Below are positions 3,669 through 25,132 of a stretch of 40,000 nucleotides of DNA, in pieces. A program made the translations under genes and the position numbers. The stretch lies in assembly GCA_025210615.1 (NCBI GenBank), contig JAOARJ010000013.1:1-40000 (forward strand), written 5' to 3'. The DNA is from Candidatus Altimarinota bacterium (GTDB lineage Bacteria; Patescibacteriota; Gracilibacteria; BD1-5; UBA6164). The notes beneath the pieces are model-generated. The model was not told the DNA's origin. It was given only the letters and a program-made list of their open reading frames with translations, and did not search any database. Every line of letters starts with the position of its first letter. The first letter of the stretch is position 1.

Positions 3669-3669
3669 A

Positions 3670-4611
3670 ATGAGAATAGCATTCTTTTGAACACCTCAGT
3701 TTTCTGCTGAAATATTAAAAAAACTTTTAAAAATAGATGATTTAGATATTGCTTTAGTTGTATCACAAACTGATAAACCAATTTGAAGAAAAAAAATTAT
3801 CATGCCTACTCCAGTAAAAGAAGTGGCACTAGACAATAATATAGAAGTTCTTCAACCTACAAAATTAGCTGGTAACACAGAGTTTTTTGATAAGCTTAAT
3901 AGTTTGGATTTAGATTTTATAGTAGTAGTAGCTTATTGAAAGATAGTGCCAACTTGAGTTCTAACAGCAAATAAATATGGACCAATAAATATTCACGGTT
4001 CTATATTGCCGAAATATCGTTGAGCTTCTCCTGTTCAAGAATGTCTACTTAAATGAGATAAAAAGACAGGTTTGACAATAATGTTTATGGATGAAAAAAT
4101 GGACGAATGAGATATACTAGCAATAAAAGAAGTAGACATAGACATAGTAGACACTCAAAAAGAAATCTTTGAAAAATTTGTTGAAATAGGACCGGATTTA
4201 TTAGTAGACACATTAAAAAAAGTGTCTACTTGAGAATTAAAATGACAAAAACAAAACTATGAAGAAGCTACTTATTGCAGTATGATAAAAAAACAAGATT
4301 GACAAATAGATTTTAATTTATCTTCTGAGGAAATTTATAATAAGTTAAGAGCTTATACTCCTTGGCCATGAATTTTTACGCAGTATAAATGAAAAAAATT
4401 TGCGATAGAAAAAGCATTTTTTTGTGAAAATCAGCCTGATAATGCTGAAGTTTGAGATGTTATAAAAACTGTTTCTTGAGAAATTTGAATAGTTTGCTGA
4501 AAATGAGTTTTGACTTTAAAGCAAGTTAAAGTAGAATGAAAAAAATCACAAGATATAAAATCTTTTTTAAACGGTCATAAAGACTTTTTAGATTATAATT
4601 TTAATAAATAA
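3670..4611 (+). CDS. fmt: Methionyl-tRNA formyltransferase (313 aa)
   Basis: 'MRIAFFGTPQFSA', 'VVVAYGKIVP', 'INIHGSILPKYRGASPVQ' and 'TGLTIMFMDEKMDEGDIL'. I checked it codon by codon under code 25. Confidence 0.9.
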
Positions 4612-4621
4612 AACTAAAAAT

Positions 4622-5383
4622 ATGTTCAATATCGCGCTTAATACATTTAGAGAAATTGTTAGAAATAAGTTTTTGTATTTAATACTATTTTTCTCGTTTA
4701 TTTTTATTCTTTTTTCTGTTTCATTGGGGAAATTATCACTATGAGAAGATTCAAAAATTATTATAGATTTTGGTCTTGCAATGATAGAATTTTTTGGATT
4801 AATCTGAGTATTATTTGTCTGAAGTCAGCTTTTATTTAACGAAGTAAATTGAAAAACAATTTTCCTAATATTATCAAAACCCATCAAAAGATATGAATTT
4901 ATTTTATGAAAATTTTTCTGATTTTCTCTTGTAATTTTATTGTTAGTTATATTTGAATCATTAGTATTCTCATCAGTATTATTATTTAAATCAGTAGCAC
5001 TTACTAAGTTGATTTGATTTTCACTAATCTTTATCTTATTAAAGCTAGAAGTGTTACTTGCATTAGTATTATTTTTCTCAACATTTATGTCGAATATTTT
5101 GACTATTTTAGTAACAGTTTTTATTTATTTTATATCACATTGATTTACAATAATTTTAGATTTAGCGACTAGAACAAGAAATGAATTTATTATAAATAGT
5201 GTAAAATGAGTAGACTTGTTATTTCCCCCATTTGAAGCGATGAATCTAAAAGATATGATAGGTTGAATAGTTTGAGTAACTAATACTTATTTATTAAGTA
5301 ATTTAGCTTATGCATTGTGATATTTAACGATAATTTTATTTTTTACTGTTATTTTATTTAACAGAAAAACTTTTGAGAGATAA
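4622..5383 (+). CDS. ABC-2-type permease-like membrane protein (253 aa), with no adjacent ATPase
   Basis: Open under code 25. About 6 hydrophobic helices, N-terminus 'MFNIALNTFREIVRNKFLYLILF', typical of ABC-2 exporter permeases. Confidence 0.65.
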
Positions 5384-5412
5384 AATAAAAAAATATTTTT
5401 TATAAAAAATTA

Positions 5413-6282
5413 ATGAAAAAAGATAAATTAATTAAAATTTTTATGGAAAAGGGCTTAAAAAATTCTCATATTGAGATGATTTTAAGTCATTTTTTATGAT
5501 TAGATAAAACAAGAGTTTTTTTATTAGAAGATATTCCAGAAGATAATATTAGAGACATAGAAAAAGTTTTAAATAGACTACTATCGTGAGAACCGATTGA
5601 ATATATAATTAATAAAGCAGATTTTTATGGTAGAGAATTTTATGTAGATAATAGAGTTTTGGTGCCGAGAAATGAAACAGAATTAATGGTCGAAAAAGTA
5701 TTAGAAAATATCAAAAAAAGTGAAAAAAAAAGAGAAAAATATGACTTTTTTATTGATTTTTGAACAGGTTCTTGCGCGATGCCGATAAGTATTTTTCTAA
5801 ATAATAATAAAAAAAATATAAATTATTTTGCGGTTGATATTTCAGACAAAGCCCTAGAGGTAGCAAAAAAGAATGCTGAAAATTATAAAGCTAATATAAA
5901 ATTAAAACAGTCTGATTTAGCAAATTATTTTTTGGAAAGTTTAGATGAGTTAAAGTGAGTAAAAAATGTTATTATAACAGCGAATTTACCATATATAAAG
6001 AATAGAGATTTTATAAATATGGATCAGGAGGTTATATTTTTTGAACCTAGTGTAGCTCTTTATTGATGAGAAGAAACTTGATTTGAATTATATGAGAAAT
6101 TAACGCAGCAGTTATTAGAATTAAAAGAGAAATTAAGTATAGAAAAAATAGTCGCTTTTTATGAAATTTGATTTGATCAATATGAGGTTTCGAAAGAATT
6201 TTTAGAAAAAAAAGGTTTAAAATTTGATTATTTTAAAGATTTTAATAATATTTACAGGACAATTAAAGTAGAATTTATTTAA
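5413..6282 (+). CDS. prmC: Release-factor glutamine N5-methyltransferase (PrmC/HemK, 289 aa)
   Basis: 'VLVPRNETE', SAM motif 'DFGTGSCAM', catalytic 'NLPY' (an NPPY variant) and 'EPSVALYGGEETGFELY'. Confidence 0.85.
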
Positions 6283-6300
6283 TAAATTTATATAATAATT

Positions 6301-6729
6301 ATGAATGAAACAATAAATAAATTTGGTTATCCGAAAACATTGCTGAAAGAATATAAGCATTGGGTTGTTTTATTAAGACCAAAACAAGCAACATTGTGAG
6401 CAATGATTTTGGCACACAAATGAAATGAAGAGAGATTGTCAGAAGTTAGTAAGGAGGCTTTTATTGAATATTGAGAAATTATTAAAGATATAGAAAAAAT
6501 CTTAAAAGAAACTTTTGATTATGATATAATGAATTATTTGATGCTGATGATGAAAGATAAACAAATTCATTATCATGTGATTCCGAGATATAGTAAGGTT
6601 GTTGATTTTGAATGAATAAAATGTAATGATGAATGATGGCCTAAAGCGCCAAATATGAAATACGATTTGTGATTTAGTGAAGAGCAGTTTAATAAACTAA
6701 AAAATATTTTAAAAAATAAATTTCAATAA
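6301..6729 (+). CDS. HIT-family nucleotide hydrolase/transferase-like protein (142 aa)
   Basis: 'HWVVLLRPKQ' and the histidine-triad-like 'IHYHVIPRY'. Open under code 25. Confidence 0.65.
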
Positions 6730-6731
6730 AA

Positions 6732-7376
6732 ATGAGTGTAGAAGAAATAGGAGATATTGAGGAGGTCGAGTCCTGAAGTCAGTGAGTTGAGGTATCTGAA
6801 AAAGATAGACAGAGGCAAGAAAAGGCGAAAAAGCAGTTTAAAAAACTTCAAAAAGATGAAAATAAAGCTAAAAAAACAGATTTACTTTTGGCTGATTTTT
6901 TGTCGCAAATTTTAAAGGATAGAAGATATGATTTTTTGTGGGATGATATTATTGATAATATAGATGAAGGCGTTCCATCGAATTTTATTTTATGAGTGTT
7001 ATCTCTTATTTATTTACCTATTTCAGATAAAATAAGAGAATTTACTTTGAAAGAAAAAATCGTTTTTGATTATTCTACTGAGGAGAGAATAAAATTTGAT
7101 GATAATAAACTAGACGATAAGATAAAACTTAGAATAAATCAAATGCTTGAAGATATTATTTGAGTAGTGACTTATGAACCATCTACTGTTTTAACCCAAA
7201 GACTGATTAAACAAATTAAACAAAAACAAGTAGTGAAATTTTTCCAAAAGACATTTTTATTCTTTTTTGATAACATAAATATTGACATTTCAGATAAAAA
7301 AGCACTAAGTTATTCTATGTTTATTCTTGATGAAATAAGGAAAACTTTAGAAAAAATTGAACTTGAAGAGATATAA
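6732..7376 (+). CDS. Hypothetical protein (214 aa), acidic/basic N-terminus
   Basis: ATG 6732. It joins in frame to the track ORF 7167-7376 through TGA codons. I recognise no motif. Confidence 0.65.
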
Positions 7377-7496
7377 AATTTGACTTTTTAGAGATATTAT
7401 ATAAAATTTGGCAGTCTATTCTTTAAAAATTTAATATTTTTAAAAATAATAGAAGAGAATTATAATAATAAAATTATTTTTTATAAAAATTATCAT

Positions 7497-9635
7497 ATGA
7501 GTAAAGACTATCCTTTAAATAAGGTAAGAAACATTGGTATCATCGCCCATATTGATGCGGGTAAGACTACTACTACAGAAAGAATTTTGTACTACACTGG
7601 TAGAACTCACAAAATTGGTGAAACACATGATGGTGAATCACAAATGGACTGGATGGAACAAGAAAAAGAAAGAGGTATTACTATTACTTCGGCGGCTACT
7701 ACTGCATTCTGGAAAGATGTTCAAATCAATATTATTGATACTCCAGGTCACGTGGATTTTACTATTGAAGTAGAAAGAGCGCTTAGAGTACTTGACGGTT
7801 GAGTTGCTGTGTTTGATGGTTCACAATGAGTAGAACCTCAATCTGAAACAGTATGGAAACAAGCTGATAGATATAATGTACCTAGAATTGCATTTGTAAA
7901 TAAAATGGATAAAACAGGTGCTGACTTTTTTATGACTTTAGAATCTATTAAAACTAGATTAGCTGGTAATAAAGTTGTTGCTATTCAAATGCCTATCGGG
8001 GCTGCTGAAGATCACGTATGAGTTATTGATTTAGTAACTATGAAAGCTTATCACTTTGAAGGAGATTCAGGTGAAAAAGTTACTGAAATTGAAATTCCTG
8101 CTGATTTAAAAGAAAAAGCAGACGCTTTAAGATTAGAAATGATTGAAAAAGTTGCTGAACAAGATGAAGCATTAATGGATAAATATTTCTCTGAATGAGA
8201 TTTAAGTGAAGAAGAAATCAAAAAAGGTTTAAGAATAGGTACTACAAATGATAGCTTATACCCAGTTACTTGTGGTTCAGCTCTTCAAAATGTATGAGTA
8301 CAACTTATGATTGATGCTGCTGTTGAATATTTACCTTCTCCAATTGATAGAGATAATGGTAACATTACAGTTATGGCTGAAGATGATTATGAAAAAACTG
8401 AAGAAATTAAAGTTGATGCTAATTCTCCATTAGCGGCTATTGCTTTTAAGGTTATGACTGATCCTTTCGTAGGTAGATTAACTTTTACTAGAGTATATGC
8501 TGGTACGCTAAAATCAGGTTCTTACGTTTATAATTCTATTTCTGGTAAAAAAGAAAGAGTTGGTAGGCTGCTTCAAATGCATGCTAACACTAGAGAAGAA
8601 ATTAGTGAAATTAAAGCTGGTCATATCTGAGCTGTAGTTGGTCTTAAAGATACTAAAACTGGTGAAACTTTATGTGATATGGACAAGAAAATTGTTCTTG
8701 AATCAATGGAATTCCCAGAACCAGTTATCGCGGTTGCTGTTGAACCAAAAACTAAAGCTGATCAAGAAAAAATGGGTATGGCATTAGCAAAACTTGCTGA
8801 AGAAGATCCATCATTCAAAGTTAAAACTGACGAAGAAACTGGACAAACTGTTATCTCAGGTATGGGTGAACTTCACTTAGATGTGCTTGTAGACAGAATG
8901 AAGAGAGAATTTAAAGTTGAATGTAATGTTGGTAACCCACAAGTTGCTTACAGAGAAACAATTAAAATTCCTGTTGCTGATGTTGAACATAAATATTCTA
9001 AACAAACTTGAGGTAGAGGTCAATATGGTCATGTTGTTATTACTTTTGAACCATACAAAGAAAGAGAAGAAGATGATGAACAAGATACTCCAAAACCATT
9101 ATTCAAATTTGTGAATAAAATTACTGGTTGAGTTATTCCTAAAGAATATATTCCTGGTGTTAAAAAAGGTTTAGAAGAATCTTATAAAAGAGGTTTCGTT
9201 GCTGGATACCCAATGGTAGATATTAAAGCTACTTTAACATTCGGTTCTTTCCATGAAGTTGATTCTTCTGAATTAGCCTTCAAGATTGCTGCTTCTAAAG
9301 CATTTAGAGACGCTTGTAAGAAAGCTCAAGCTATTATCTTAGAACCAATAATGAAAGTTGAGGTTAATACTCCTGAAGAGTATATGGGTGATATTTTATG
9401 ACAAATTAATTCTAAGAGAGGTAGAATTGAAGAAATGACAGATAGAGGACAAGCTAAAGTTATTACTGCTTTTGTTCCATTATCTGAAATGTTTGGTTAT
9501 ACTACTGAATTAAGATCAGCTTCTCAAGGTAGAGCAACTTCTTCTATGGAATTCGACCATTATGCTGAAGTTCCAGCTAATATTGCTACTGAAATCAGAG
9601 AAGAAAGAGGATTCACTTTAGAAGATGATGATTAA
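7497..9635 (+). CDS. fusA: Translation elongation factor G (712 aa)
   Basis: G1 '[12 protein letters not shown]', 'DTPGHVDF' and '[13 protein letters not shown]' (that Gly is TGA). Five track fragments share one frame. Confidence 0.97.
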
Positions 9636-9652
9636 TAAAAATTTTTCAAACT

Positions 9653-9685
9653 AAAAGAGTTAGATTTTCTAGCTCTTTTTTGATT
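9653..9685 (+). terminator. Rho-independent terminator after fusA
   Basis: An 11-bp stem, 'aaaagagttag' with 'ctagctctttt' (one G-U pair), then a T-run. Confidence 0.7.
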
Positions 9686-9739
9686 TTTCAAGATTATTAT
9701 GTTATTATTAGTTACATAATAATTATTAAGATAAATGAT

Positions 9740-10777
9740 ATGACTGAAATAAATAAATTTGATAGTATTAATAATATTTCTACGCAACCAGTAGACTCTC
9801 AAGATTCTCCAGAAGTACAAAAGACTAGGGAAATGGATTTGAATAATCCAGAAGATTTAAAAGAATTATGAATTCCAACTATTGAAGAGTTGCAAGAGAT
9901 AAAAGTTTCAACAGAAGTTTTTAATTCTTGGAAAGAAAAACCTATAAATCATTATGATTTAGAAAACCGGTGAGATATATCTTCACCAACAGCTAAATAT
10001 AAAGAAGAACATCCTAAACATCCTGTAAAACCAAGTAATGAACAAATGGTTAATGTTTCAGAATATTGAATTAGAGGAGAGGATTACTATTTTAAATTGG
10101 CAAATGCATCACTAGAGCAATTAATAGCAAAACACTGAAAAGAAAATTGAGAGGATTTCTATGAAAAAAATAAAATGTTTAGAGAATTAAAAGAGGAGAA
10201 ATTAATTAATCCTGATTGTCATTTAAGAAAATGAGTCGTAGCAAGATTAAAAGAGGTAAATAGAATTCTTAAAGCACATTGATATCAAATTATGGTAAAT
10301 AATTGATATAGAAATGTTTTCACTCAAACTGAGGCTAAAAGAACTTACGAAAATATTTATTGAACATATGAAGCTAAAAAGCATATTGCAAAACCTTGAA
10401 CATCTACACATCAAACGGGAGGTTCATTAGATGTTAAACTTCTTGATAAAGACGGAAATATAGTAAATTTAAAATTTGGTAAGGAAGGAACGAATACTTC
10501 GTTATATTGAGAAAACTTAGTAGATGAAAAATGATGGGAAAATTTAACTGACGAAGAAAAGGAAATTATACAAATGAGAAGAGTTTTATGTCATGTTATG
10601 AAATTAGCTTGATTTATCTGAAATCCTAAATATTTTTGGGATTATGGTTTTTGAGATTCATTAAGTACTTATATTTTAAGTCAAAGAATATCAAAAAAAA
10701 CATGAGAAAAAACTATTGTTCCTGCTATATATAAAATTATTACTAATATAGAAAATCAAAGCACTACTGAAAAGTAA
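9740..10777 (+). CDS. LAS-fold / peptidase M15 (VanX/DdpX-like D-Ala-D-Ala dipeptidase family) protein with an N-terminal extension (345 aa)
   Basis: 'GYRNVFTQ' and 'KPGTSTHQTGGSLDV' (SxHxxGxAxD-type Zn motif). The expected distal 'EWWH' position reads 'YFWDY'. Open under code 25. Confidence 0.65.
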
Positions 10778-10889
10778 TGCTTTTTTATTTTAAAAATTTT
10801 TAATTTAAATTCAGAAAATTATTTTAGTTTGCTTTTTTGTAAAAAAAAAGTATATTATGGGTGCTGAAAAAGCAAAATTGTAGTTTTTC

Positions 10890-10911
10890 ATGGTTAAATT
10901 ATTTTAACCAT
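10890..10911 (+). promoter_or_regulatory. Perfect 9-bp inverted repeat 14 nt upstream of the rny start (5'-UTR stem-loop or operator)
   Basis: 'atggttaaa' ttat 'tttaaccat'. Confidence 0.3.
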
Positions 10912-10924
10912 TAAATATTAATTT

Positions 10925-12445
10925 ATGAATGAAGTATTATTTTTGTTATGTGGACTATTAGCTTGAATAGCTGTATACCATTTGATAACAAAATATATTG
11001 ACTCAAAGACTAAACAAAATAGTCAAAAAGAAGCAGACCAAATCTTAAAAAATGCAAAAGTAGATAAAGAGAAAATTATAACTGAAGCCAAGTTGGAAAA
11101 AAATGAAATATTAAATAAGGCAGATAGTGAGAGAGATAAAATTCTAGAGAAAGCAAGACAAGCTGAACAAAGAATTATATCTAAAGAAGATAAATTAGAT
11201 TTGAAAGCAGAAGAGTTGACTAAAAAACAAGAATCTTTATTTAAAAAAGAAGAATCTTTAGAAAAAGAAAGAAATGTTTTGGCTGAAAAAACATGAGAAT
11301 TAGAAATTAAAATTTCTGAAATAGCTAAACTAACTGAAGAAGAAGCAAGAGGATTGTTCCTGAAACAAATGGAAGAAAAATATGAAAAAGATGCTATTTC
11401 TTTATTAGATAAGAGAAAATCTTATTATAAGGAAAAAGAGAAGGAAGTATCTAGAGAAATTTTGATTAAAGCTATGCAACAATATTCTTGTGATGTTACA
11501 ACTGAAACGACTTCTACAGTTATACCGCTTGAGAGTGATGATATAAAATGAAGACTTATCTGAAAAGAAGGTCGTAATATTATTACTTTTGAAAAAGCTA
11601 CGTGAGTTTCTCTTATTATAGACGATACTCCGGATACTGTGTTTATTTCTAGTTTTGATTTATATAGAAGATATGTAGCGAAAGTTTCTCTTGAAAAACT
11701 TTTAGAAGATAAGAGAATACAACCTGCTAGAATTGAAGAAATCGTTGAAAATACTAAAGGAGAGGCTGATATTTTACTAAAAAATATTGGTCAAAAGACT
11801 TTAGATGAACTTGATATAAAACCTCTTCCAGAAGAGATTGTTAAGCTTATCTGAAAACTTAGATTTAGAACTAGTTATGGACAAAATATTTTGCAACACT
11901 CTAGGGAAATGGCGTTTATTGCTGAAAGTATAGCCAAAGATTTGTGAGTAGATACATACGCTGTTAGAGTCTGAGCGTTACTGCATGATATTTGAAAAGC
12001 ATTAGACCATGATATTGAATGAAATCATCCAGAAATTTGAGCTAGAGTAGCGAGAAAATATGGAATTTCTGAAGATATAGTAGATATGATAGAAAACCAC
12101 CATGGAGAACCTACAATGATATCTTTAAACTCTGCTATTATACAAGTTGCTGACACAATTAGTAGTGTTAGACCTTGAGCAAGAAGGGAATCTATCGAAC
12201 TATATCTAAAGAGAATTAAAGAATTAGAAACGCTTGTACAAACTTTTTCTTGAGTAAATAATGCTTATGCAGTAAGTGCTTGAAGAGAAGTTAGAGTATT
12301 TGTTGATGCGGAAGTTATTTCTGATATCGAAGCTGTAAAAATGGCTAGAGATATTGCTGATAAAATACAAGAAAATGGAAGCTATCCTTGAGAAGTAAAA
12401 GTGAATTTAATTAGAGAAATTAGAGTTATAGAATACGCTAAATAA
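10925..12445 (+). CDS. rny: Ribonuclease Y (506 aa)
   Basis: N-terminal TM helix, a Lys/Glu coiled coil, KH '[28 protein letters not shown]', and HD region 'LRFRTSYGQNILQHSREMAFIAE'. Three track fragments share one frame. Confidence 0.9.
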
Positions 12446-12465
12446 TAAAATTTAATTAAAAAATT

Positions 12466-13023
12466 ATGTACTGAGCTACAGAACTAAAACCAGGTAGAAA
12501 AATTATTTTTGAAAATGCACCTTACGAAATCTTAAAATATGACCAACATGTGATGGGAAGATGAAGTAGTGTTATCAATGTAAAAATGAAAAACTTGCTT
12601 ACTGGAGCTATTGTTCCAAAATCTTTTTGAGATAGTGATAAATTTGAAGAAGCTGATGTTTTTAAATCAGCTTATGAATATTTATATGAAGATGGTGAAA
12701 ATTACTACTTCATGAATCAAAAAAATTATGAACAGGTATTCATAAATAGTGAAGCTGTTTGAGATGCTAAATTCTTCTTAGTAGAATGAGGAAAAGTTGT
12801 TTTACAAGAATATAACTGAAATCCAATAAATATTGAATTAGAACCAAGTGTGGAACTAGAAGTTATGGAAACTCCACCTTGAGAAAAATGAGATACAGCG
12901 ACAGGAGGAAAAAAACCAGCTACATTGTCTACTTGACTAGTTGTACAAGTTCCTTTATTTATAGGTATTTGAGATATAATTAAAGTAGACACAAGAGATA
13001 AATCATACTTATCTAGAGCATAA
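12466..13023 (+). CDS. efp: Elongation factor P (185 aa)
   Basis: 'LKPGRKIIFENAPYEILKYDQHVMGRGSSVINVKMKNLLTG' and 'ETPPGEKGDTATGGKKPATLSTG'. Confidence 0.93.
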
Positions 13024-13091
13024 TTTGTCTAGTATAGTCATCTAAATTTTAGATGGCTAAATCTAGATAATTATAATTTTAGTAAAAAAAT

Positions 13092-13880
13092 ATGATACCT
13101 TTTTTTGAAATATTCAATTGATGGCTTATTTATACCTTCGGATTAACATTAACATTATGTTTTTTCTTGTTTTTATGGCTGCTTAGAAAAGTGTCTGATA
13201 AATTTTGAATAAACTTTTCATTTTTTGTAAATAGAATCTTTTGGTTTTTCTTGTCTACATTTCTTTTTTCAAGGTTATTTTATATTATTTGAAGATGGGA
13301 AGATTTTAAATTTATAAATAATTTTTTAGAATTTTTTATAATGACAGATTATAATTTTTCTCTTATTTGAGGGATATTTGGTTTTCTGTTAGTGTTATTT
13401 TTGTCTACTCGTAGTTTTAAAATACAATCTTGAAAATATATAGACGCAACAGTTATTACATTTTTATTTGTAGCGATTTTCTGATTTATTTGAGCATTTT
13501 TAGGTGGACAAATTTATTGAACTGAAACGACATATTGAATAGAAGTTGTCTACAATCATAGTTTTAGTCCAGTGGTAAGTGGGATACCTGTTTTTCCTCT
13601 GGCTTTAGTCTATTCATGAGTTTGTTTTGTACTTTTTTCGCTTCTATATATGCTTAGTGACTTTGTAAAAGTAAGATGACTTTTGTGATATATAGGAATG
13701 ATTTTATTCTTTAGTGGTATTCTTATACTAGACAATTTTAATTGAAAAGCAGATTTATTTGTCCAAAAATATGCAATAAGTTTTAATCAAATTTGAGCGA
13801 TTTTCTTTATCTTGTTTGCATTTTTTAAATTATATATGATTTCAAAAGATTCAAGCAAACAAAATGATATTATTATCTAG
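13092..13880 (+). CDS. lgt: Prolipoprotein diacylglyceryl transferase (262 aa)
   Basis: Polytopic membrane protein with 'GGIFGFLL' and 'GAFLGGQIYG' (compare the Lgt 'GRxGNFxNxELxG' region). Confidence 0.75.
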
Positions 13881-13893
13881 TAGATTTTAAAAT

Positions 13894-15378
13894 ATGAATT
13901 TATCTCTTAATAGACAATTTTTATTTTGTCTACTATCTTTTTTAATATGAATATTTATTTTTAACATATTTTTTGATTTTTTTGTATCACTTTTTTTGAT
14001 AATATTTTGTCTAATTATTTTATTAAATTATAGTTTATTTTTATGAAAAACTTGATTTAATAAATTTATTTTTTTGTTATTTTTTAGTAGTATTTTTTGA
14101 ATAATTATCTGACAAATAAATTATAATAATATAAATTATAAACAGCTTAAATTAGAGAATATAACTAATAATTATTCTAGTGAAATTAGTTTAGAATTAC
14201 AGATAATAAACACATATAAAAAATATGAAAATTATACCAGCTATATTTGAAAAATAATTACTATAAATAATGAAAAAATTGATAATATAAATTTGCTTAT
14301 TAATTTTTCTCCAAAAGAAAATTTATACCAAAATGATAAAATTATTGTAGACACTAAAGTAGACAAAATTAATAATTTTGTGTCGACTTTTGATTATGAA
14401 AATTTTATGAAATCAAAAAATATTTATGGAAGTTTGAATATCTATTTTTTAGAAAAAGAAAAAATTATAAGATGAAAATCAGGATTTATTTACAAAACTA
14501 GACAAAAAATGTTAGATGCTATGTCTACTATATTTCCTGAACAAGAAGCTAATTTATTGTCTTGAATATTGATTTGAAGTAGACAAAATTTATCAAAAAA
14601 TTTACAAGAAAATTTTAATAATTCATGACTTACTCATATAATAGCAGTTAGTTGATATAATATTACAATAATTATTTTGTTTGTATGAATTTTTATTGTT
14701 TATTTGCCATATTTTTTAAGACCATTTATAGTAGCATTATTTATTATAATTTTTGTTTTATTGGTAGGTTTAGAGCCTCCTGTACTAAGGGCTGCAATAA
14801 TGTGATGAATGTGATTTTTTGTTCTTTTATCAGGAAGAGAAAATAATTCTATAACATTACTTATTTTATCTGCTGCTATTATAGCCTTATTCAACCCATT
14901 TATTTTAAATTTTGATATAAGTTTTTGGTTGAGTTTTTTGTCTGTTTTATGATTAACATTTATTTATCCTCTTATAGAAAATAAGTTTGAAAGATTGCCA
15001 AGATTTATCAGGGATAATTTTTCTCTTGCTATCTCTGCTTTTGTTTTTAATTTGCCAATATTAATTTATTTTTTTTGAGAAATTTCTATTATATTTATCA
15101 TAAGTAATCTATTTGTGTTATTTGCGATTCCTTTTGCAATGTTGTTTTGATTTATGGCTATAATATTAAGTTTTGTTAATATAATTTTATGAAAAATTAT
15201 ATGATTTATAGCTTATTTCTTTTTGCATTATATAATTTTAATGGTGAATTTTTTTGGAGAATTGCCATTTGCTAAAATAAATTTGGATTTTTGATTTCTT
15301 AATATTTATTTTTTAGTTTTATATTATTTAATTATCTGAATATTTTTATTAAATAAAAATAAAAAAACTGCTATTTAG
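13894..15378 (+). CDS. comEC: ComEC/Rec2-family DNA internalisation channel, short form without a C-terminal metallo-beta-lactamase domain (494 aa)
   Basis: 'NNSGLTHIIAVSGYNITII', 'PPVLRAAIMGG' and many TM helices. TAG stop at 15376-15378, inside the terminator stem. Confidence 0.8.
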
Positions 15379-15384
15379 CAGTTT
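15365..15384. terminator. Bidirectional terminator between the convergent comEC and the minus-strand locus
   Basis: A 9-bp perfect stem, 'aaactgcta' tt 'tagcagttt', with an A-run on the left and a T-rich stretch on the right. Confidence 0.65.
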
Positions 15385-15389
15385 CAATT

Positions 15390-16037
15390 TTATGCGCTCA
15401 TTATTGTTTCTGAATCATATGGCCAATCTTTTAATTTTCTCTCACCTTCTGCCGAGGCTACTTTTTGTTCATTATCTCATGTTTGAGATATTGTTTTTCT
15501 TTTCTTTTTTGAAGCTTCTTGTTCTTTGTTTTGTCTTTCATTTATTTGATTCATCAACTTTTTTAGACTTTCAGAAAATTCTTGAGCTTTTTTTCTTTCT
15601 TTTTCATGAGATTTATCAACAGCTTCTCAAGTTTCTTTTGATATTTTTCATTTTCATCAACCTATTCATTTAATAAATTTATTTATTTCTTTTACATTTT
15701 CGGCTATTTCTAGTATAGCTTGTTCTTTTCATTTTTCATCATTTAAATTAAGCCCATTTAATTCTTTAGCACGCTTTTCAATTAGAGTATTAAAAGCTGT
15801 TATTTCATTCTCACTTAATCATCTCTTTTCTAAATTTCATGCAATAGATTTTGCAGCATTGAGAAAAGTTTCTCAAGCACTACCTTTATTATAATTTTCT
15901 TTTATTGCATTCATTTCTTCTGTGTGGAAGTTTGGATCTTTTTCTTTTTTAGGAAAATCTGTTTCAAATGCATTTTTACTTGCTTCTTGTTCTTTTGTTA
16001 GTTCAGTATTATTATTTCCTGTTTCAAGATTTGACAT
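15390..16037 (-). CDS. Soluble Lys/Glu-rich coiled-coil protein (215 aa), last gene of the T4SS-like locus
   Basis: ATG at 16037-16035, TAA at 15392-15390. Open under code 25. No TM segment and no recognised motif. Confidence 0.65.
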
Positions 16038-16107: not shown

Positions 16108-16554
16108 TTAATAATATACCCAAGGAGCGATTATACTAAGTATTGTTCCTGTTAATAAAAGTAAAATTAATCATAAAATTGTTTGTATAATTCTTCATTT
16201 TGCAGCTTCTTTTGCTCATGAGTCTACTCCAGAAGCAGAAATAGCTATTCAGTTTATAACGATGAATAATACTCAAGTTAGAGCTGCGATAAGTGTTCAA
16301 TATTTTATCATTTTATTTAATACTTCCATAACACTGTTAAATCATTTTTTTATTTCACATTGGTATAATGTAGGATTTTTTTTGGCTGTATCAGACCATT
16401 TTATAGCAGTACAATTCCCTCAAGGGACTTCTTCAGTTGTTTCAACTTTTAAAGTTATTTCTTTATCGGCAGCATAAGTATTATTAGCTGTTATAAGAAA
16501 TAATCACAAAATAATACAGGAAAATAGAATAATTAATTTAATTAAATTTTTCAT
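16108..16554 (-). CDS. TrbC/VirB2-like T4SS pilin (148 aa): signal peptide plus one two-TM hairpin
   Basis: 'MKNLIKLIILFSCIILGLFLITANNTYA' then 'LIAALTGVLFIVINGIAISASGVDSGAKEAAKGRIIQTILGLILLLLTG'. Confidence 0.7.
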
Positions 16555-16564
16555 AATTATAAAA

Positions 16565-17485
16565 TTAGAAATTAATATCAGATAAAATAGAAACACTAGA
16601 GATATAGATTAATATTCAAAGTACAGTGTAAAGAATAATATCTTTTCATTTCTGCATTTTTGAATCATCTCCTCAAGATAATAAATAATAGTATCATCAT
16701 AGAGTTATAAAGAAGAATGCGACAGGCGCTAAGAAATAAGCTCATACTTGCATTAATTGTTGATATAATTTTTCTCAAGCCATTAAATCATTTGCAAATA
16801 CTAAACTCTTGAATCATTCTATAAGTCCTACAAAGAATAATCAGAATAATCAGTAAGAGAATTTGAATTTTCATTCAGTAACATTTTCTTCTTTTCATCT
16901 TGAAGAAATAACTCTTCCTCAAGCTAAAATAAACATAAGTATAGCAGAGGCAAATATTAATACCTCCAAAAAAGTAATAACATTTTCTGAAACAACTGTT
17001 AGGAAATTATCTCATGCTAGTAAACTTATACTTGTTCAATCAGAAAATGTATCAGGATTTGAAGTTAAAGATTTATCTTTGTTATTAGTAACAAATACAT
17101 CTTTTAATAATTCAGGAATATTTATAAATAATAATCAAGTTAAAGCGTAGTATAATTGTTTCTTAGAAGAAGACAACTGTTCTTCATTTGTTCACATTGA
17201 TAATACCATCATAATTCAAGTATATACAAGAAAAATAACTAATACTCACTGTAAAGTCGTTTTTAAAATGGCAATAGCACTACCTCATAAAATGTTAGCA
17301 TTTTCTGTTAAGCTAGCATTATTTAATCCTTCTTTTAACATTGAAACATCTTTTACACTGTCAATTTTATTTAAGCTATCTATTCATACAACTCATTTTT
17401 CATTATTATCATCTCAAGCAGCCAAACAAATACTTCAATAAAAAGCAGTAATAATCGTGATAATGAAAAGTAATATTTTTTTCAT
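16565..17485 (-). CDS. Membrane protein with signal peptide and three pilin-like two-TM hairpin modules (306 aa)
   Basis: I checked every triplet of this frame: no TAA or TAG. Loops are 'SMGTNEEQLSSSKKQLYYALTGL', 'SSRGKEENVTEGKFKFSYGLFGL' and 'LSGGDDSKMQKGKDIILYTVLGI'. Confidence 0.75.
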
Positions 17486-17515
17486 AATTATAAAAATTAA
17501 TTATTATATTTTATT

Positions 17516-18595
17516 TTAAGTCGGTGGTTTTATAACAGGTCATACTTCGCTTGATAAGAAGAATACTGTTATTGTATAACTAGCCGATACTATAAACATT
17601 CAGATAAGGGCATATAGTAACCATTTTTTTCATTTTTCCATATTCTCTTCATTTCATCAAGAGGTTACCATTAATCCTCAAGCATAAATAATTATAATAG
17701 TTACTATTACTAACATAAAAGTATTTCCCCAGTTTATAATGTCAGTTACTATATCTACTCATTCTTTAAAATTAACTTTTCATCTACATCCTCATTCTTT
17801 ACCACAATTAATATCTCAATAAAGGCTTTTTATCATTGCTCAAGATACTTTTACCATAACATATCACATTATAGCGTAGATAACTCAGTCTTTTCATTTT
17901 TTTACTTTATCTTCTTGTCCACGGGCAGTTATTAGTCTGTAAGCTGAATATACCATCATTGCTACAAATCAGAATCAAGTTAGAAATAACATAAATTGAG
18001 CAATAGGATTTATTATGTTTATAAGTAGAACTTCTCATAATTGACCATCTACTTGACCAGCATTTTCTCATACTCAAGGTTTATAAAGATTTACAGCTAC
18101 ACTATAAGCGATTTGCATAACAATAAGTCAGACACTTGTCCATATAACAGTTTTTTTAACATTTTGAAACTCTTCTTCAGAATTTTGTGTGAAAACAAGT
18201 CTTAAAACCATTATAAGCAAATATATAGAAGAGATGATATATACAAGATTTTTCATATCTTTTGCCACGGTTATAAGAAAATTATAAATTCCTCAAGTTC
18301 CAGTAACTTCCTCTTGAACAGTATGAAAACCACTTTTCATCTTTTCAAGAGGCTTAATTTCTCTTTTTGTTCCTTGGGTATTATCTTGACGACCACTGTT
18401 ATCATCTTTTCAACTACCTCAAGTATTTCCAGAAGATTCTTTTCAGCCAGCAGAATTATCTGTTACTATAGTAGGAGAGTTTTCACTTTCATATCATTTA
18501 TATTTATTATCTCTTGTACTGATATCTCAAAAAGCACTTCATATAGACAAGCTAAATATAAAACAGAATGTAATTATTTTTATAAAATTTTTCAT
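17516..18595 (-). CDS. Membrane protein with signal peptide, a Gly/Ser/Asp-rich linker and three pilin-like two-TM hairpin modules (359 aa)
   Basis: Loops are 'FTQNSEEEFQNVKKTVIWTSVGL', 'TARGQEDKVKKGKDGVIYAIMGY' and 'TSGGNEENMEKGKKWLLYALIGM'. Confidence 0.7.
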
Positions 18596-18638: not shown

Positions 18639-21368
18639 TTAATTTGTAATTCATAATCTAGCTTCTATTTCCATATCTACATATTTTCTCTTTCTACCAT
18701 ATTTTTTTCTTGAATATTCTTTTAAAATACCCGCTGCTTTTGTGTTCTTATAATTATTATCCCGGATAGTTTTTATATCAAATGGTCTACTCGAAGCATT
18801 ATTTATATTTAGTTTACAATAAGTTGTGAAATTTGCAATACCAATTATATCTTGTTGTGATAAAACTGGAGCATATTCTTTTTCTAAATACTCAGCATCT
18901 TCAGCTCAGACCTTGAAACTCATTATAGTACCAGCATTACCGAATACTGCATCTTTAATAGATGGTTTATCTCATTTTTGAGCTCAAGAAGCATTAATTT
19001 GAGCAATAAATTGGTGAGCCATTATAAGAGCTAAACGATATTTTCTGGCTTCTGATAATATTTCTCAGAAAGTTTCTGTTGCAAAATTTTGGAATTCATC
19101 TACATATAGATAGAAATCTTTTCTTTCATCTTCTGGAATATCAGCTCTACTCATCGCAGCCATATTCATTTTAGATACATAAATCAATCATAATAATTGC
19201 GCATTAAGTGCTCAAATTTTACCTTTAGAAAGATTTACTAATACAATTTTTTCATTATCCATAGCGTGTCTAATATTGAAAGCTGATTTAGGTTGTCCTA
19301 TAATATTACGAATAGTAGTATTAGTAATAAATGGGCCAAATTTTGAACTGAAATAAGGAATCATTTCTTGTTTTTCTCTATCTCAAGTATTAGCATACTC
19401 ATGGTCCCAAAAAGATTTTACTACAGGATTTTGTACTTTTGAAGTTTTATACTTCATAAAAGCATCATCAGTAAACAATCTAGGTACATCAATAAGTGTT
19501 CCTCACTCATCTAAATCTTCCATTAATGTCAAACAACCATTACGGAAATAATGTTGTATACGAGGACCAAAAATTTCATCACCAAATATTTTTATAAAGA
19601 TTTCAGTAGCGTCCATTGCGGCTCTATCCATTTCTCTTTTTCTGGCTTCTGACTCACTAGATATTACCTCAAGCATATTCAGCCCCATAGGTCTATCATC
19701 ATCAGCAGGGTCAAAGACAATTACATCTTTTGCTCTTTCTTTTGGAGTAAAAGCTAGAATATCTTCAACCAAATCACCATGCGGATCAATAACTCATAAA
19801 CCATGTCCAGCCCGTACATCTTGTCTAGCTAAATATCATACAAATACAGATTTTCAACCTCAAGATTTTCAGATAACATAATGGTGTCTACCCCTGTCTT
19901 TTTTATCAAAATAGATAGGAGTTTTTCTACTTCTATATTCATTCCATCACATTAAAACTCAATCTTCATAAGTTTTAAAACCTCAAAGTTCCATATGAAC
20001 TTTTTTCATATTTCAGTTTTTATCTTTTTTTTCTAAAATAATAGGTTTTTTAGGTTGTTTAAGATTATGCGGAGGAGCTAGTTTTTTATATTCTAACCAT
20101 TCAATAATAGGACTTCTATTATAGTTTATATCAGGAAAGTGATACATACTTGATAGCTCATCAATAGAAAAAATTGAAATATTTTGAAACATTCATAAAA
20201 GTCTATATTTATAAGCAAAATATCTAATAGGAGTAAAAATAAATGGCAAAGCATCTTCTATAAGTTGCGGATTATCAAGAGAATTATTATATTCGTCAGC
20301 ATAAATTGTAGCTGCTCAAATAATAGCATGAACTCATTCTTCAGCATTTCTTGAGCTTTTACTTGAACAAATTATTCTAATAGATGTTCTAAATGATAAT
20401 TGCCCAGCAGATTCTCACATTATTTTTTGCGCTTCTACTTCAGCTTGATTAAATATTTTATAAGAATCTCAAGAATTGGCTCAAGGAGCATTATTAGGGT
20501 CTTTTACCATACTATCTGGTCATTGAAAAATGGCTACAATAGGATTCCAAAAAATATCTAAAAATGGAATATTTCTTTTTTTACTATATTCTCATTTCGC
20601 TACTAATCAAGCAGCTCTTTTAGCTTTTTTAGCCCAAGAGCCTGGAGCAGGTTTTATAACAATTTGAAATACTGCTTTGTCATCTTTAGCAAGACCTCAA
20701 AATACATTTGTGAAATTATTTAATCAATCATCTTCCATATATTTATACGTTCTAATAGGGAAAACATCATCATTTTCTTTTCATAAAGAAGCAGCTCTTG
20801 TAGTATATCAATTTGGTTTTAATTTAAATTCTCCTTCTTCAACAAATTCAACTTCAGCATCATTATAAAGCGAAGTTATATGTTGTTGTACTAGATTAGC
20901 ATATTGCTCGTAAGTAGACACATAAAAATGAACTTTTCACATATCGTATACAAGTTCCATACTAACTTTCGCATGATTGAAAAGCAAATTCATAACTGTA
21001 TCATATAATCCCGCTTCAGAAAGTTTATTTACAGCTTTATAAAACATACTCATAATTCAGATTTTTTCTTTGAAGTCCTTTTTTGTTTCTCTTTCTTTGT
21101 CTAATTTTGAATCTGCTTTTGGCAATGTAATTTTCATATAAACTAATTTTTTTGCAGTCCACATTTCAAACATCAAACGCATTGTTTTAACAATCAAAAC
21201 AAGAAGTAAAATAGTTAAAACTATCCCTAAAATAATATAAAGCACATCTCAAATAACTCAATTTAAAATTCATCAAGAAGTTTGAGCAGTTTCAGTTGCA
21301 GCAGTTTGTTTTTCAATTGTTTTATTTGCGTCTAATAAACTAGACATAAATACATTATAAATTTGCAT
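18639..21368 (-). CDS. T4SS ATPase of the FtsK/HerA superfamily, VirD4/TraG/TraD-like coupling protein (909 aa; 902 aa if it starts at ATG 21347)
   Basis: N-terminal TM 'VLYIILGIVLTILLLVLIV'. Walker A 'HYVIGKSGGGKS' at 19848-19874, where three Gly are TGA. 'VIDPHGDL', Walker B 'FYLYVDEFQNF', and the TraG-D_C-like 'ARKYRLALIMAHQFIAQI'. Track fragments 19503-19772 and 21057-21245 are in frame. Confidence 0.88.
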
Positions 21369-21499: not shown

Positions 21500-22618
21500 T
21501 TAGTTATTTTCAAAATAAATTTTAGCATTTTTTAAATTAATTTCTTGTAATTCTTTTACTTTTTCTTGAAAAAATTTATTATTTTTAGATAATTTTTTTG
21601 CAAAATCAGCAGGGAAAATAAATCATAAATCTTCATCTTTAAAATTATTTCATCAATCAGGTTTTTTATATCAAATTATTTCATATTTATCATCAGTTAT
21701 CTTAGTTTGCATTAGGATAGGAATAATTGTTTGCACTCAAGTATGAATTCATCACTCCTTATCTTCATAATATTCTTCAGAAACAACTATTACATAATTA
21801 TCAGTAATTCAAGTGTCTTTATTTTCAGTTTTTCAAACTATATTAAAAGCAGTTATTCTAGCTCATCATAAAGCCCTTACTCAAATATTATCTTTAATAT
21901 AATTTATCCTTAGTAAATCAACTTTTTCTTTAGTGTTTTCAGTAATATATTTATTGTTACTTTCATCTTGATTTTCGTCCTTATTTTCTTCTGAAGAATC
22001 AGAATTTTTTTCTGTATTATTAGATGTTTTTTCTTCGTCATCTTCAGCCACTATAACAGTAGTATTCTTATTTTCTTCTTCCAATTTTTTAATTAATTCT
22101 TGTTCTTTTTTTATAAGCTCTTGTTTTCTTTTTTCTAGTTCAGCTTTTTCTTTTTCTTCTGCTTCTTTTTTAGAAATTAAATTATCTCTATATTTTATAA
22201 AAGCATTTGTTACATTTTTTATTTTTTCTTCTGTTATTCTCGCGTCTGGTTTAACTTCTTTGATTTGAGATAATAAATTATTTATAAATTTTATTTTTCT
22301 TTCATAATCAAATTTATAAGTAACAAAATAATTATCTAAAAATATTGTTATTCTAGCTTCATCTTCTGAAATATCTGATTTTTCTGTTAAATCTCAGCTA
22401 GGTTTATCTTCCCCAGAACAACTACCAAAATAATCAGTTTCTACTCAGGCTTCTTTCATATAACAAGAATTTTGATAAGTGATTCAATCTTTCCCGCAGA
22501 CAGGATAATAATTGTTTGTACATAAAGAAGCATTAGTATTATTTATGTTTAATACTCAAAATATTCCTGCTAAAATTAATAAAAAAATTTTATTTTTTAA
22601 TATATTTTTTATAGTCAT
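21500..22618 (-). CDS. Secreted protein with an N-terminal Kazal-type protease-inhibitor-like domain, a KE-rich coiled coil and an acidic low-complexity linker (372 aa)
   Basis: Signal-like 'IFLLILAGIFGVLNINNTNA', then 'LCTNNYYPVCGKDGITYQNSCYMKEAGVETDYFGSC' (the 'PVCG-DG-TY-N-C' Kazal core). Track ORF 21881-22084 is in frame. Confidence 0.78.
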
Positions 22619-22674: not shown

Positions 22675-22700
22675 CAAAAAAAGACTAGAATTTCTAGCCT
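22675..22700 (-). terminator. Rho-independent terminator overlapping the stop of the 812-aa gene
   Basis: The minus strand reads 'aggctagaaattctagtcttttttt'. The TAG stop (22696-22694) lies in the stem. Confidence 0.65.
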
Positions 22701-25132
22701 AATTCTCCTCATACACTGAAAGTATTTGTCATGTCTGTAATATCTTTTCTGTTTTTTGATTCTTCTAGCCACTGCGCGATTATATTTTCATTTATCATTC
22801 AGTCTTCTCTTATTATTCAAGACTTTTGTCATTGTAATATAGTTTGTTCTTTTGTTTTGAATCTTCATTTAAAGAATCTAGTTAGTTGTCAAAAATCTTT
22901 TGAAATACTAATTTCCTCTTCCATATTTAGCATCATTAATATTATTCTTATAAGTTTTTTAGCTTCAGCAGGTTTTACTCAATCACTTAGATTAATATCA
23001 GTTTTTAGGTCTGTCATTGTTCAGATAGTACTCAAAAAAGGTATAAACGGAGATAATCTACATTCTTCAAAAATATCTACAAGGGCCAAGTAAGAAAGAG
23101 CATCAGCTTTAGATTTAAAAGTTTCAGTTTTTCAAGTAGATATAATATTTAATTTAATTTCTCAATTATCTAATTCTTTCCATTTCATTCAAAAATTATC
23201 AGTTTTATTTTTAGCGTCTTCTATTGTAAAGTTTTCTTCAGTAACAGTTTTTCAGTTGATAGTAAATTTTGTCATTCTTTCACCATCTCTTTTTTGACTT
23301 TCTTTTTTGCTTTTTTCTTCTTCTTTTTTTTGCTTTTCACTTTTGTTTTTATCTTCATCTTTTTTAGTGTATTTTATTTCATTTGTGTTTAAAGCTAGTT
23401 CTTGTAATGAATTTGATAAATTACTAAAGAAAGTATTTTCCTCTATTTTAGGCAATAGGGACTCTTTATCATCTAAAATTAATTTTATAATAATAGGAAG
23501 ACCTTTTTCTTGTAAATATAATTGACAATCATCAACTCATTCTTTCCAGTTTGTAAATAAATCAATAAATTTATTATAATCTCAAGGATTTTGAGGTCAT
23601 AAAACACTTTGTAATTTATTTAGAAAGTCGTCAGAATCTTTAGAATTTTCATATAACCAAATCATATAATCTCATAATTCCTCTCAATCAAAAATTGATA
23701 AAGACTTAGAATTCTTTATTTTATTTTCAAATCTTTCATAGTGTTCATCTGTACCTATAATAGCTTCTGCTTCATGTATTTTTTCTTTTACGAAGGAAAG
23801 CGATTTTTGTATAATAGGTGCTGAAACAATTTCATCTACTGCTTTATCAAGTAAATCTTTTGCTCATTCAGCAACATATTCAAGAGGATTTTTTGATTCT
23901 AATGCTTTATTTACAGATTCTTTTACAGAAGAAACAATTTCACTAACTTCTTCAGGAAGATTTTCTACAAACTCCACTGTATCTTCGGCTAGAGAACTAA
24001 CTCCATCAATACTATCAGTTATGAATTCTTGTATATTTTCTCAAGCATTAGATAAATTTGCTTCTAGATTTCCCATTGTTTCTGAGAAAGAAAACATTTC
24101 ATCTAATCTATCTAGAATAATTTCATTATCTGTTCTAGTGTCTGCTAAAATATTATTTTGTAGGGCAAATTCTTGCCAACGGCTTTCAGGAGAAGAACCA
24201 AAAGAATCAAAAAAACTAGAATTTTCTTGTTGCTCTTCTTGTTTTATGAAATCTAAAACTTTTTGTTCAGTATAATCTAAATTATCTTTTTTTTGCTTTA
24301 ATAAATAATCTAGGGCTTCATCTCAAGTTTTATTTTTAATTATATTTTTAAAATTTTTGAATATAGTATAATTAAAACGCCATGAATTTTCATCAGTTTT
24401 ATAGAATCTTTTATCCTTAAGAGCAGCGCTTATTTGAGAAATAAGAGAAGTTAATAAATGCCTTTTAGCAGGAGAGGATGTAAGTTTATTATAAATTTCT
24501 TGTTTTAAGGCTTTAGACTCTTCATCAAATAATTTATTAAGGTCATTAAATTCTTTATTGCCAGAAAATACTTCTAAATCTTCACGAGTAAGTCAGGTTT
24601 CTTGCAATTTTTTTAAATCTTGTATTTCTTGCCTTAGATAAAATAAATTTTCAGAAGTTTTTTCTTTTGATAATTTTAAAAAGTTATTATATGCTTTTTC
24701 TATTTCATCAAATTCTTTATATATTTTGTTTATTTGTTTGGAATTTCATTTGTAAGAGTCTAATAATTTAGAATAAATATTTATTGCAGAATTAAACTCT
24801 TCACCTGCTTCATTAAGTACTTTTTTTTCAGATAAAATTTTTAAATCTCTTATAGTAAACCATTTTTTTTGTAATTTTTTTAGATCTTGAAATTCTTGTT
24901 TTAGGTAAAACAGGTCATCAGGTGTTTTTTCTCTAGATAATACTTTTAAATTATCATATATTTCCTCTATTTCATCAAATTTTTTATATATTCTGTTTAG
25001 TTGTTCAGGTTTTCATTTATAAGCTTCTGTTAATTCAGAATATATGTCAACAGCAGAATTAAAAATATTATCAGCTTCTTGTTCAGGAGAAATATTTTCT
25101 AAAGATACATTTTTGTTTTCTATTACATTCAT
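22694..25132 (-). CDS. Large, predicted cytoplasmic, helical protein of unknown function (812 aa) with an N-terminal 2 x 89-aa tandem repeat
   Basis: ATG at 25132-25130. Open under code 25 to TAG. Track ORFs 25013-25195 and 23252-23455 are in frame. No signal peptide or TM segment seen. Confidence 0.72.
24540..25075 (-). repeat. In-frame tandem duplication, period 267 bp (89 aa), two diverged copies
   Basis: 'tatttcatca' recurs at 24701 and 24968. The protein copies are 'NIFNSAVDIYSELTEAYKGKPEQLNRIYKKFDEIEEIYDNLKVLSREKTPDDLFYLKQEFQDLKKLQ' and 'EEFNSAINIYSKLLDSYKGNSKQINKIYKEFDEIEKAYNNFLKLSKEKTSENLFYLRQEIQDLKKLQ'. Confidence 0.8.

Follow-up and report, generated by a model that had tools for sequence, protein, structure and literature searches.

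Three adjacent Gracilibacteria genes encoding seven VirB2-type pilin hairpins in a fused 3+3+1 arrangement beside a VirD4-like ATPase gene

Three recoded genes and seven hairpins

The DNA analysed here, called the window, is a stretch of 40,000 nucleotides (1-40000) from a Candidatus Altimarinota bacterium of the Gracilibacteria (assembly GCA_025210615.1, contig JAOARJ010000013.1). We describe in it three adjacent genes, at 16108-18595, that encode seven pilin-like transmembrane (TM) hairpins. The window has a G+C content of ~25%, and TGA is read as glycine throughout. Calling of open reading frames (ORFs) with table 11 broke 14-21 kb into short, overlapping ORFs; reading TGA as sense raised the summed length of ORFs ≥ 100 aa about five-fold, from 9.8 to 55.5 kb. 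TGA sits at a universally conserved glycine of serine hydroxymethyltransferase (motif KYSExYPxKRYY) and of elongation factor G, and therefore the genome uses code 25, the code of Gracilibacteria and Absconditabacteria. The table 11 gene models were dropped for this reason. Under code 25, the region consists of exactly three complete minus-strand genes, A, B and C (Table 1), separated by 30 bp (A-B) and 10 bp (B-C), while 43 bp separate A from the ATPase gene upstream of it (g909). At NCBI the product of gene A is named 'pilin' (P0001, 100% identity) and that of gene B 'hypothetical protein N4A38_04475' (P0008, 100% identity). Many database homologs have been translated with TGA as tryptophan, and carry W where this genome has G, a mistranslation that could mislead alignments and structure prediction.

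An earlier note on this DNA had counted seven hairpin copies spread 1 + 3 + 3 over the three genes. Taken together, Pfam, hhalign, hydropathy and the secondary structure of AlphaFold2 (AF2) models of A and B confirmed the count: A and B hold three hairpins each and C one, always behind a signal-peptide-like N-terminus. In the hydropathy profiles, an N-terminal hydrophobic segment is followed by 6 (A), 6 (B) and 2 (C) hydrophobic helices. Protein A continues with a low-complexity extracytoplasmic extension of ~78 aa, variable among homologs, then hairpins A1 to A3, with an invariant cysteine pair (C264/C270) in the linker between A2 and A3. Protein B passes from its N-terminus to hairpins B1 to B3, and protein C has an extension with a cysteine pair before its single hairpin C1. 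Signal peptides were called by inspection alone, from a basic n-region, a core that is hydrophobic and residues of small size at -3/-1; putative cleavage sites were placed by eye between TYA and AD, AAG and DD, and AFG and DI. There is no conserved lipobox cysteine, and a lipoprotein identity was rejected for this reason.

The AF2 models of the two three-module proteins had predicted local distance difference test (pLDDT) scores of 46.9 and 60.2 and predicted template modelling (pTM) scores of 0.31 and 0.41, and their secondary structure alone was usable. It places the hairpins of A at residues 102-135/140-170, 185-223/228-259 and 277-311/316-347, and those of B at 59-96/101-131, 158-194/199-230 and 236-269/274-305, with helices of 31-39 residues. 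The density of K+R is 0.15-0.19 around the hairpin turns, compared to 0.06-0.13 in the linkers.

Table 1. Coordinates of the three pilin genes, their modules, neighbouring features and related loci (L numbers).
Sequence	Feature	Position	Strand	Remarks
Window	Gene A (g359, 359 aa)	17516-18595	-	code 25 ORF; PF18895
Window	Gene B (g306, 306 aa)	16565-17485	-	code 25 ORF; PF18895
Window	Gene C (g148, 148 aa)	16108-16554	-	code 25 ORF; PF18895
Window	Module A1, divergent	18071-18313 (g359 residues 95-175)	-	PF18895 23.9 bits, E = 4.4e-5; hhalign
Window	Module A2	17810-18058 (g359 residues 180-262)	-	PF18895 31.0 bits
Window	Module A3	17519-17782 (g359 residues 272-359)	-	PF18895 31.6 bits; PF04956 15.4 bits, E = 0.023
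Window	Module B1, most divergent	17081-17323 (g306 residues 55-135)	-	hhalign; FINIP motif in helix 2
Window	Module B2	16778-17038 (g306 residues 150-236)	-	PF18895 29.0 bits
Window	Module B3	16568-16777 (g306 residues 237-306)	-	PF18895 27.5 bits
Window	Module C1	16111-16359 (g148 residues 66-148)	-	PF18895 29.8 bits (isolated module)
Window	g909, VirD4/TraD-like coupling-protein-type ATPase	18639-21368	-	Walker A GKSGGGKS
Window	g372, secreted, N-terminal Kazal domain	21500-22618	-	Kazal_1 E = 5.8e-8; upstream of the ATPase gene
Window	g812, 812-aa coiled-coil protein	22694-25132	-	no family match; upstream of g372
Window	g215, Lys/Glu-rich protein	15390-16037	-	no family match; 70 bp downstream of C; terminator behind
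Window	Terminator-like hairpin, bidirectional	15364-15385	.	shared end of the minus-strand unit and of the ComEC gene facing it
Window	Terminator-like hairpin after g812	22682-22700	-	
Window	ComEC-type competence channel	13894-15378	+	DUF4131 + Competence, without beta-lactamase domain; convergent to the pilin unit
Window	Lgt	13092-13880		just upstream of the ComEC gene
Window	Giant ORF, >3,520 aa	29438-40000	+	runs off the end; N-terminal hydrophobic segment; acidic repeats
L001	DUF8128 VirD4-like ATPase ortholog	5965-8916		
L031	DUF8128 VirD4-like ATPase ortholog	3691-6288		
L013	Shortened cassette, T2SSE-family ATPase	2702-3772		
L014	Shortened cassette, T2SSE-family ATPase	5740-6810		
L015	Shortened cassette, T2SSE-family ATPase	5509-6579		
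L017	Shortened cassette, T2SSE-family ATPase	5860-6924		
L022	Extra single-module pilin	14191-14619	-	
L023	Extra single-module pilin	13690-14118	-	
L024	Extra single-module pilin	7252-7683	-	
L027	Extra single-module pilin	12557-12985	-	
L029	Extra single-module pilin	12433-12867	-	
L030	Array of eight pilin genes	9005-14262		another CPR (candidate phyla radiation) lineage, standard code; 212, 125, 606 (7 modules), 106, 135, 106, 106, 106 aa

The modules are VirB2-type pilin domains

The hairpins had been read as pilins of the TrbC/VirB2 type, and comparison with Pfam bears this out. Against PF18895 (T4SS_pilin, gathering threshold 26.6 bits), the whole proteins scored 27.2 (g148), 52.6 (g306) and 60.7 bits (g359), all above the gathering score. 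When the modules were isolated, five of the seven passed it; A1 fell just under and B1 gave no match. These two were joined to the others by hhalign, run on per-module alignments built from orthologs with 40 column shuffles per pair as a control: B1 reached a probability of 94.6% to B2 and 95.7% to A3 (z = 10-21), and A1 of 87-92% to A2, A3 and B3 (z = 8.9-10.6). Every module pair tested beat its shuffles, with z = 6-21, and therefore TM composition does not account for the similarity. The seven modules align in register, as the earlier note would have them do, at 13-24% identity to each other; at the hairpin turn and the start of helix 2, a lysine is invariant and an acidic pair nearly so. 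The loop signature that had been written down for them was approximately right, except that A1 lacks the glycine and C1 the EE pair; the four peptides quoted as examples were all found in the code 25 translations.

The link with the TrbC/VirB2 family itself (PF04956, gathering threshold 27.9 bits) comes from relatives. No window protein reached that gathering score, the best being module A3 (Table 1), but the multi-module relatives P0026, P0027, P0031 and P0033 passed PF18895 and also PF04956, at 40.9-54.9 bits, and so anchor the group securely in the VirB2 superfamily. The NCBIfam model NF045849 ('Mbov_0395 pilin-like conjugal transfer protein') was matched weakly by g148 (E = 8e-4) and A3 (E = 0.017), with scores far under the family cut-off (19 versus 40 bits). 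A, B and C had no match at E ≤ 1 to VirB6/TrbL (PF04610) or to the VirB3/PrgI families, so that a VirB3/PrgI identity was ruled out, and a profile search of the PDB retrieved no solved VirB6 chain. We conclude that, as far as sequence comparison can tell, the modules are almost certainly VirB2-superfamily pilin domains (Pfam T4SS_pilin). Their fused 3+3+1 architecture is likewise near certain.

The order of the modules is conserved across Gracilibacteria

The three-module layout recurred in full-length homologs, 7 for A (its own sequence included) and 19 for B, and a scan of species-representative genomes returned 27 loci, nearly all in Gracilibacteria. The loci were surveyed on code 25 ORFs, the modules being counted with a hidden Markov model of the module alignment and the ATPase located by phmmer. 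The same cassette, an ATPase gene (~930-985 aa) followed by pilin genes of three (~310-360 aa), three (~297-307 aa) and one module (~127-158 aa), was found in about 20 of 29 related loci, one of them on the complete chromosome CP042461.1. The earlier note had left to be checked whether orthologous loci carry single or fused modules; at these loci the fused form is kept. In 15 loci the ATPase gene is the immediate upstream neighbour of the pilin genes, and the genes flanking the cassette vary from locus to locus.

Orthology was then examined module by module (140 modules from 20 complete cassettes). At each of the positions A1, A2, A3, B1, B2, B3 and C1, the best match in another genome was the module of the same position in 20 cases of 20, with mean scores of 209-257 within a position versus 38-91 between positions, and a mean identity of 50-66% within one position. 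Each position has private conserved motifs, such as FINIP, present class-wide in B1. This strict positional orthology means that the fusion and the order of the modules are ancient and under purifying selection: by these comparisons, the hairpins are seven ancient, position-locked module types.

The same result bears on the idea that the proteins are a surface repertoire which varies, serving antigenic variation or host range, and that the fusion is incidental. Such a function has been proposed for the tandem VirB2 paralogs of Bartonella and Anaplasma. A role of this kind has been suggested for Patescibacteria pilin arrays (PMC12102498), and the low identity between modules together with the variable N-terminal extension of protein A would suit it. 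Strict positional orthologs in all 20 loci, at the identities given above and with a constant copy number, argue against a variable or antigenic repertoire, which we regard as quite improbable here.

Variants of the cassette were also seen. In L013, L014, L015 and L017 it is shortened to a three-module gene followed by a single-module gene, and an ATPase of ~356 aa of the T2SSE family (PilT/VirB11-like; PF00437, E = 8e-50) lies directly upstream, replacing the VirD4-like one. Several genomes have an extra single-module pilin gene (~142-144 aa) on the opposite strand, ~4-6 kb downstream of the cassette, of which no counterpart was found in the window.

Fused pilins in other lineages

The module profile was searched against 1.84 billion cluster representatives, and matched 54,206 of them at E ≤ 1e-3, of which 231 also reached E ≤ 1e-30. 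Among the best 150 of the 54,206, 147 had at least three matched stretches and about 34 had 4-8, in a list biased by scores that add over modules and by the families used for building the profile. The top entries come from standard-code organisms and have short linkers without internal methionines or signal-peptide segments, and Pfam independently counts 5-8 domains in the top multi-module ones. Ca. Andersenbacteria and Ca. Peregrinibacteria are among the lineages with multi-module proteins. Two multi-module relatives were checked on DNA, and both proved to be intact ORFs translating to the query as called. In L030, a seven-module protein is part of an array of eight pilin genes, with no T4SS ATPase within 10 kb of the array. 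In L031 (Peregrinibacteria), a DUF8128 + VirD4-like ATPase is encoded at a distance of 3.7 kb from a seven-module protein, and peptidoglycan-binding and DPBB proteins are encoded between the two. Fused pilins are thus widespread in metagenomes.

With these relatives at hand, it is hardly credible that the fusions are an artefact, either of ORFs joined by reading TGA as sense or of unrelated TM hairpins alike in hydrophobic composition. Such a concern could draw on the short ORFs, which appear only under table 11, and on the fact that TM segments can inflate profile scores. However, TGA as glycine is proven by the housekeeping genes and TGA also falls at the conserved glycine of the module motif; the fused genes contain neither TAA or TAG stops nor internal signal peptides; standard-code relatives with seven modules are intact ORFs; and the shuffle controls and the Pfam gathering thresholds were passed. 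Read-through as an explanation was refuted on these grounds, and the triple fusions, whose architecture is kept in 20 loci, are genuine.

Comparison with known pilins

VirB2-like pilins of Patescibacteria type IV secretion systems (T4SSs) are known, separate-gene arrays of them have been published and, as said, NCBI already labels A a pilin. A survey of Patescibacteria T4SSs, in which PF18895 and PF04956 define 'VirB2-like pilins', reported arrays in 383 assemblies (Quinonero-Coronel et al. 2025, PMC12102498). They consist of 2-11 separate small genes, often near virB4, with a mean identity of 25% (PMC12102498). The window genes fall within this definition, being at least two adjacent PF18895/PF04956 genes of low mutual identity, and they resemble the arrays of Ca. 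Southlakia epibionticum ML1 and Ca. Nanosynbacter lyticus TM7x in several respects: PF18895 domains, clustered divergent paralogs, Sec-type signal peptides, a chromosomal location in an ultrasmall host-dependent bacterium, and a T4SS of mating-pair formation (MPF) type FATA ancestry. They differ in that 6 of the 7 hairpins are covalently fused, three per polypeptide, whereas the genes of the arrays are single-domain; in that count and order are fixed class-wide; and in the neighbour, which is VirD4-like and not VirB4. The survey table has one row per protein (PMC12102498), and therefore a fusion would count as a single VirB2; surveys of this kind under-count pilin modules. Our literature searches (fused or multi-domain VirB2, PF18895, DUF8128) found no description of covalent multi-pilin fusions, in agreement with the earlier note, which knew of none characterised, nor of the class-wide 3+3+1 arrangement and its operon link to a DUF8128-VirD4-like ATPase.

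With the TrbC/VirB2/TraA pilins of F, RP4 and Ti (PF04956), the modules share the signal peptide, a two-helix hairpin of ~70 aa and a short charged turn. Those pilins are single hairpins, some of them N-acetylated or head-to-tail cyclised, and work in diderms with VirB4, VirB6 and VirB5; the window proteins are set apart from them by their weak PF04956 score, and no structural match was obtained. The Mbov_0395 / MMCAP2_0565 family of Mycoplasma integrative conjugative elements also consists of small VirB2-like hairpins, in a wall-less/monoderm MPF-FATA-type system, but it is single-module and borne on such elements, unlike the fused pilins of the window. The archaeal Ced/Ted pilins (CedA1/TedC), which Beltran and colleagues reportedly described in 2023, are VirB2-like single hairpins with which a monoderm-type relative of T4SSs imports DNA instead of exporting it; if CPR take up nutrients or DNA, these pilins may plausibly be a parallel in function.

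A DUF8128-type VirD4-like ATPase accompanies the pilins

The ATPase g909 passed PF02534 (40.6 bits for a cut-off of 20.1, E = 1.9e-10) and PF10412 (20.7 bits for 20.5); its Pfam matches comprise T4SS-DNA_transf (VirD4/TraG), TrwB_AAD_bind, TraG-D_C (PF12696) and DUF87. It also matched the NCBIfam TraD and CD1115 VirD4-like models, under their cut-offs, and is therefore a divergent member of the VirD4/type IV coupling protein group. A single N-terminal TM helix is predicted at residues ~36-60. Residues ~60-480 (~430 aa) correspond to DUF8128 (PF26449) of the orthologs, which carry both PF26449 and PF02534. This DUF8128 ATPase travels with multi-module pilins in Gracilibacteria and Peregrinibacteria. 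No paper mentioning DUF8128 was found in our literature searches, and a phmmer search of g909 against the PDB returned nothing.

No domain of VirB4, VirB3, VirB6 or VirB8 was found in the window ORFs scanned, a set from which the housekeeping genes and a giant ORF were left out, so that, compared to a canonical T4SS cluster, this one shows neither virB4 nor another MPF gene among them. Most VirD4-like coupling protein genes of Patescibacteria are not near virB4 either (PMC12102498).

What the fused pilins may build

By sequence, the 3+3+1 proteins are almost certainly the Gracilibacteria form of the Patescibacteria VirB2-like pilin arrays, with members fused. As to assembly product and function, which we infer, we lean towards the fused proteins being pilus or conduit subunits in one defined hetero-oligomeric structure of the envelope. 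The homology speaks for this, as do the length of the helices, which is like that of pilins, and the occurrence of fused proteins inside ordinary arrays. A, B and C would be exported by Sec and lose their signal peptide, leaving the N-terminus outside; the hairpins would then insert with their termini outside and the charged turn (xGxEE...KxK) in the cytoplasm. Since each module has two helices, all modules would lie in the VirB2 orientation with external linkers, and the higher K+R density at the turns than in the linkers supports this turn-in topology. Powered by the adjacent ATPase and/or the VirB4 system of the genome, the seven hairpins would assemble into an envelope-spanning short pilus or conduit serving the host-dependent lifestyle, in which the diverged subunits would have their order of neighbours and their 3:3:1 ratio set by the covalent links.

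Several points weigh against a pilus or conduit. 'Pilin' is here a homology-based name. Canonical T4SS pilus biogenesis uses VirB4 (and VirB11), not VirD4, and the conserved neighbour is VirD4-like, with no VirB4 among the scanned ORFs of the 40-kb window. We know of no precedent for pulling a six-helix polypeptide out of the membrane into a filament, and the strong divergence of the first modules, A1 and B1, suggests specialised non-filament roles. The loci L013-L017 lack the adjacent ATPase and gene A. The AF2 models of A and B are poor (pLDDT 47 and 60), and the Foldseek comparison that the earlier note had proposed gave no match to VirB2/TraA structures with them in the PDB (nothing significant, best E = 0.27); PDB profile searches, started from the module alignment and from the g306 family, yielded no pilin. 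Finally, a 2025 review treats a pilus as only a possibility for any Patescibacterium, none having been demonstrated (PMC12857230).

The top Foldseek matches (14-3-3 proteins, designed helical repeats, alpha-pore toxins) were treated as noise, and PDB profile matches to designed coiled coils and SEC16 were judged spurious. An unrelated transporter fold, which the earlier note had named as the outcome that would speak against it, was not found.

A serious rival, in view of the VirD4-like partner, the unprecedented six-helix extraction and the specialised A1 and B1, is that the three-hairpin proteins are a membrane-resident channel or assembly platform, which would replace VirB6 and/or VirB3 and dock the VirD4-like ATPase, only C, if any, polymerising. 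Six TM helices are left after cleavage of the signal peptide, and VirB6/TrbL proteins are likewise polytopic (at least 5 TM), recruit pilin and contact ATPases. The role would be vacant, as Gracilibacteria have been reported to lack VirB6 homologues (PMC12102498). The ATPase conserved beside the pilins is of the coupling-protein type, which in canonical systems docks on an inner-membrane channel; position-locked, non-interchangeable modules in a fixed 3+3+1 are more readily reconciled with a defined complex than with a homopolymer; and A1 and B1 have diverged, with unique motifs. On the other hand, VirB6/TrbL is not made of repeated pilin hairpins, and no similarity to it, to VirB3/PrgI or to solved VirB6 chains was detected. 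In other CPR lineages, ordinary arrays too contain fused pilins, with up to 8 modules, and the helices, at 31-39 residues, exceed a simple TM span and resemble those of pilins. We regard a channel or platform as possible, but rather doubt it. It is unlikely, in our estimate, that the seven hairpins and the DUF8128-VirD4-like ATPase form a self-contained, VirB4-independent machine, a defined hetero-oligomeric membrane pore or stub of concatenated pilin folds that takes the role of the missing VirB6 in Gracilibacteria; if true, this would show how polytopic channel proteins of T4SSs can arise through the concatenation of pilin hairpins.

Covalent fusion in a fixed order and ratio constrains the models: a pilus would have to fit protomers of 6 to 16 helices with external linkers; alternatively, the 'pilins' are blocks from which a channel is built. 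Testable predictions follow from the strict 3+3+1 and from the ATPase of the operon being VirD4-like and not VirB4, and fused pilins are natural 'tethered-subunit' constructs for structural work. VirB2-like pilins matter to Patescibacteria in the one system tested, where Ca. Southlakia epibionticum needs its six-pilin array for epibiotic growth (PMC12857230).

Other features around the pilin genes

On the minus strand, no terminator-like site was found between the hairpin at 22682 and that at 15385, which is consistent with one transcription unit from g372 to g215, the latter possibly being its last gene. A promoter scan was uninformative, with 59 sites versus 51 expected. Kazal-type protease-inhibitor domains, such as that of g372, are unusual in bacteria; a Kazal protein upstream of the ATPase is kept only in the close relative L002 (6070-7122). 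At its N-terminus, g812 has two tandem repeats of ~90 aa (residues ~20-95 and ~110-185), for example NIFNSAVDIYSELTEAYKGKPEQLNRIYKKFDEIEEIY and EEFNSAINIYSKLLDSYKGNSKQINKIYKEFDEIEKAY. A gene of 875 aa without a recorded Pfam match occupies the position of g812 in L002. As to the ComEC-type gene of the window, a DUF4131 gene is also present in L001, within ~7 kb of the cassette. The giant ORF contains many acidic N-N-x-x-P/S-D-F-I-D repeats, possibly calcium-binding and dockerin- or thrombospondin-like, and L001 has a neighbour of 4,320 aa with faint FG-GAP matches.

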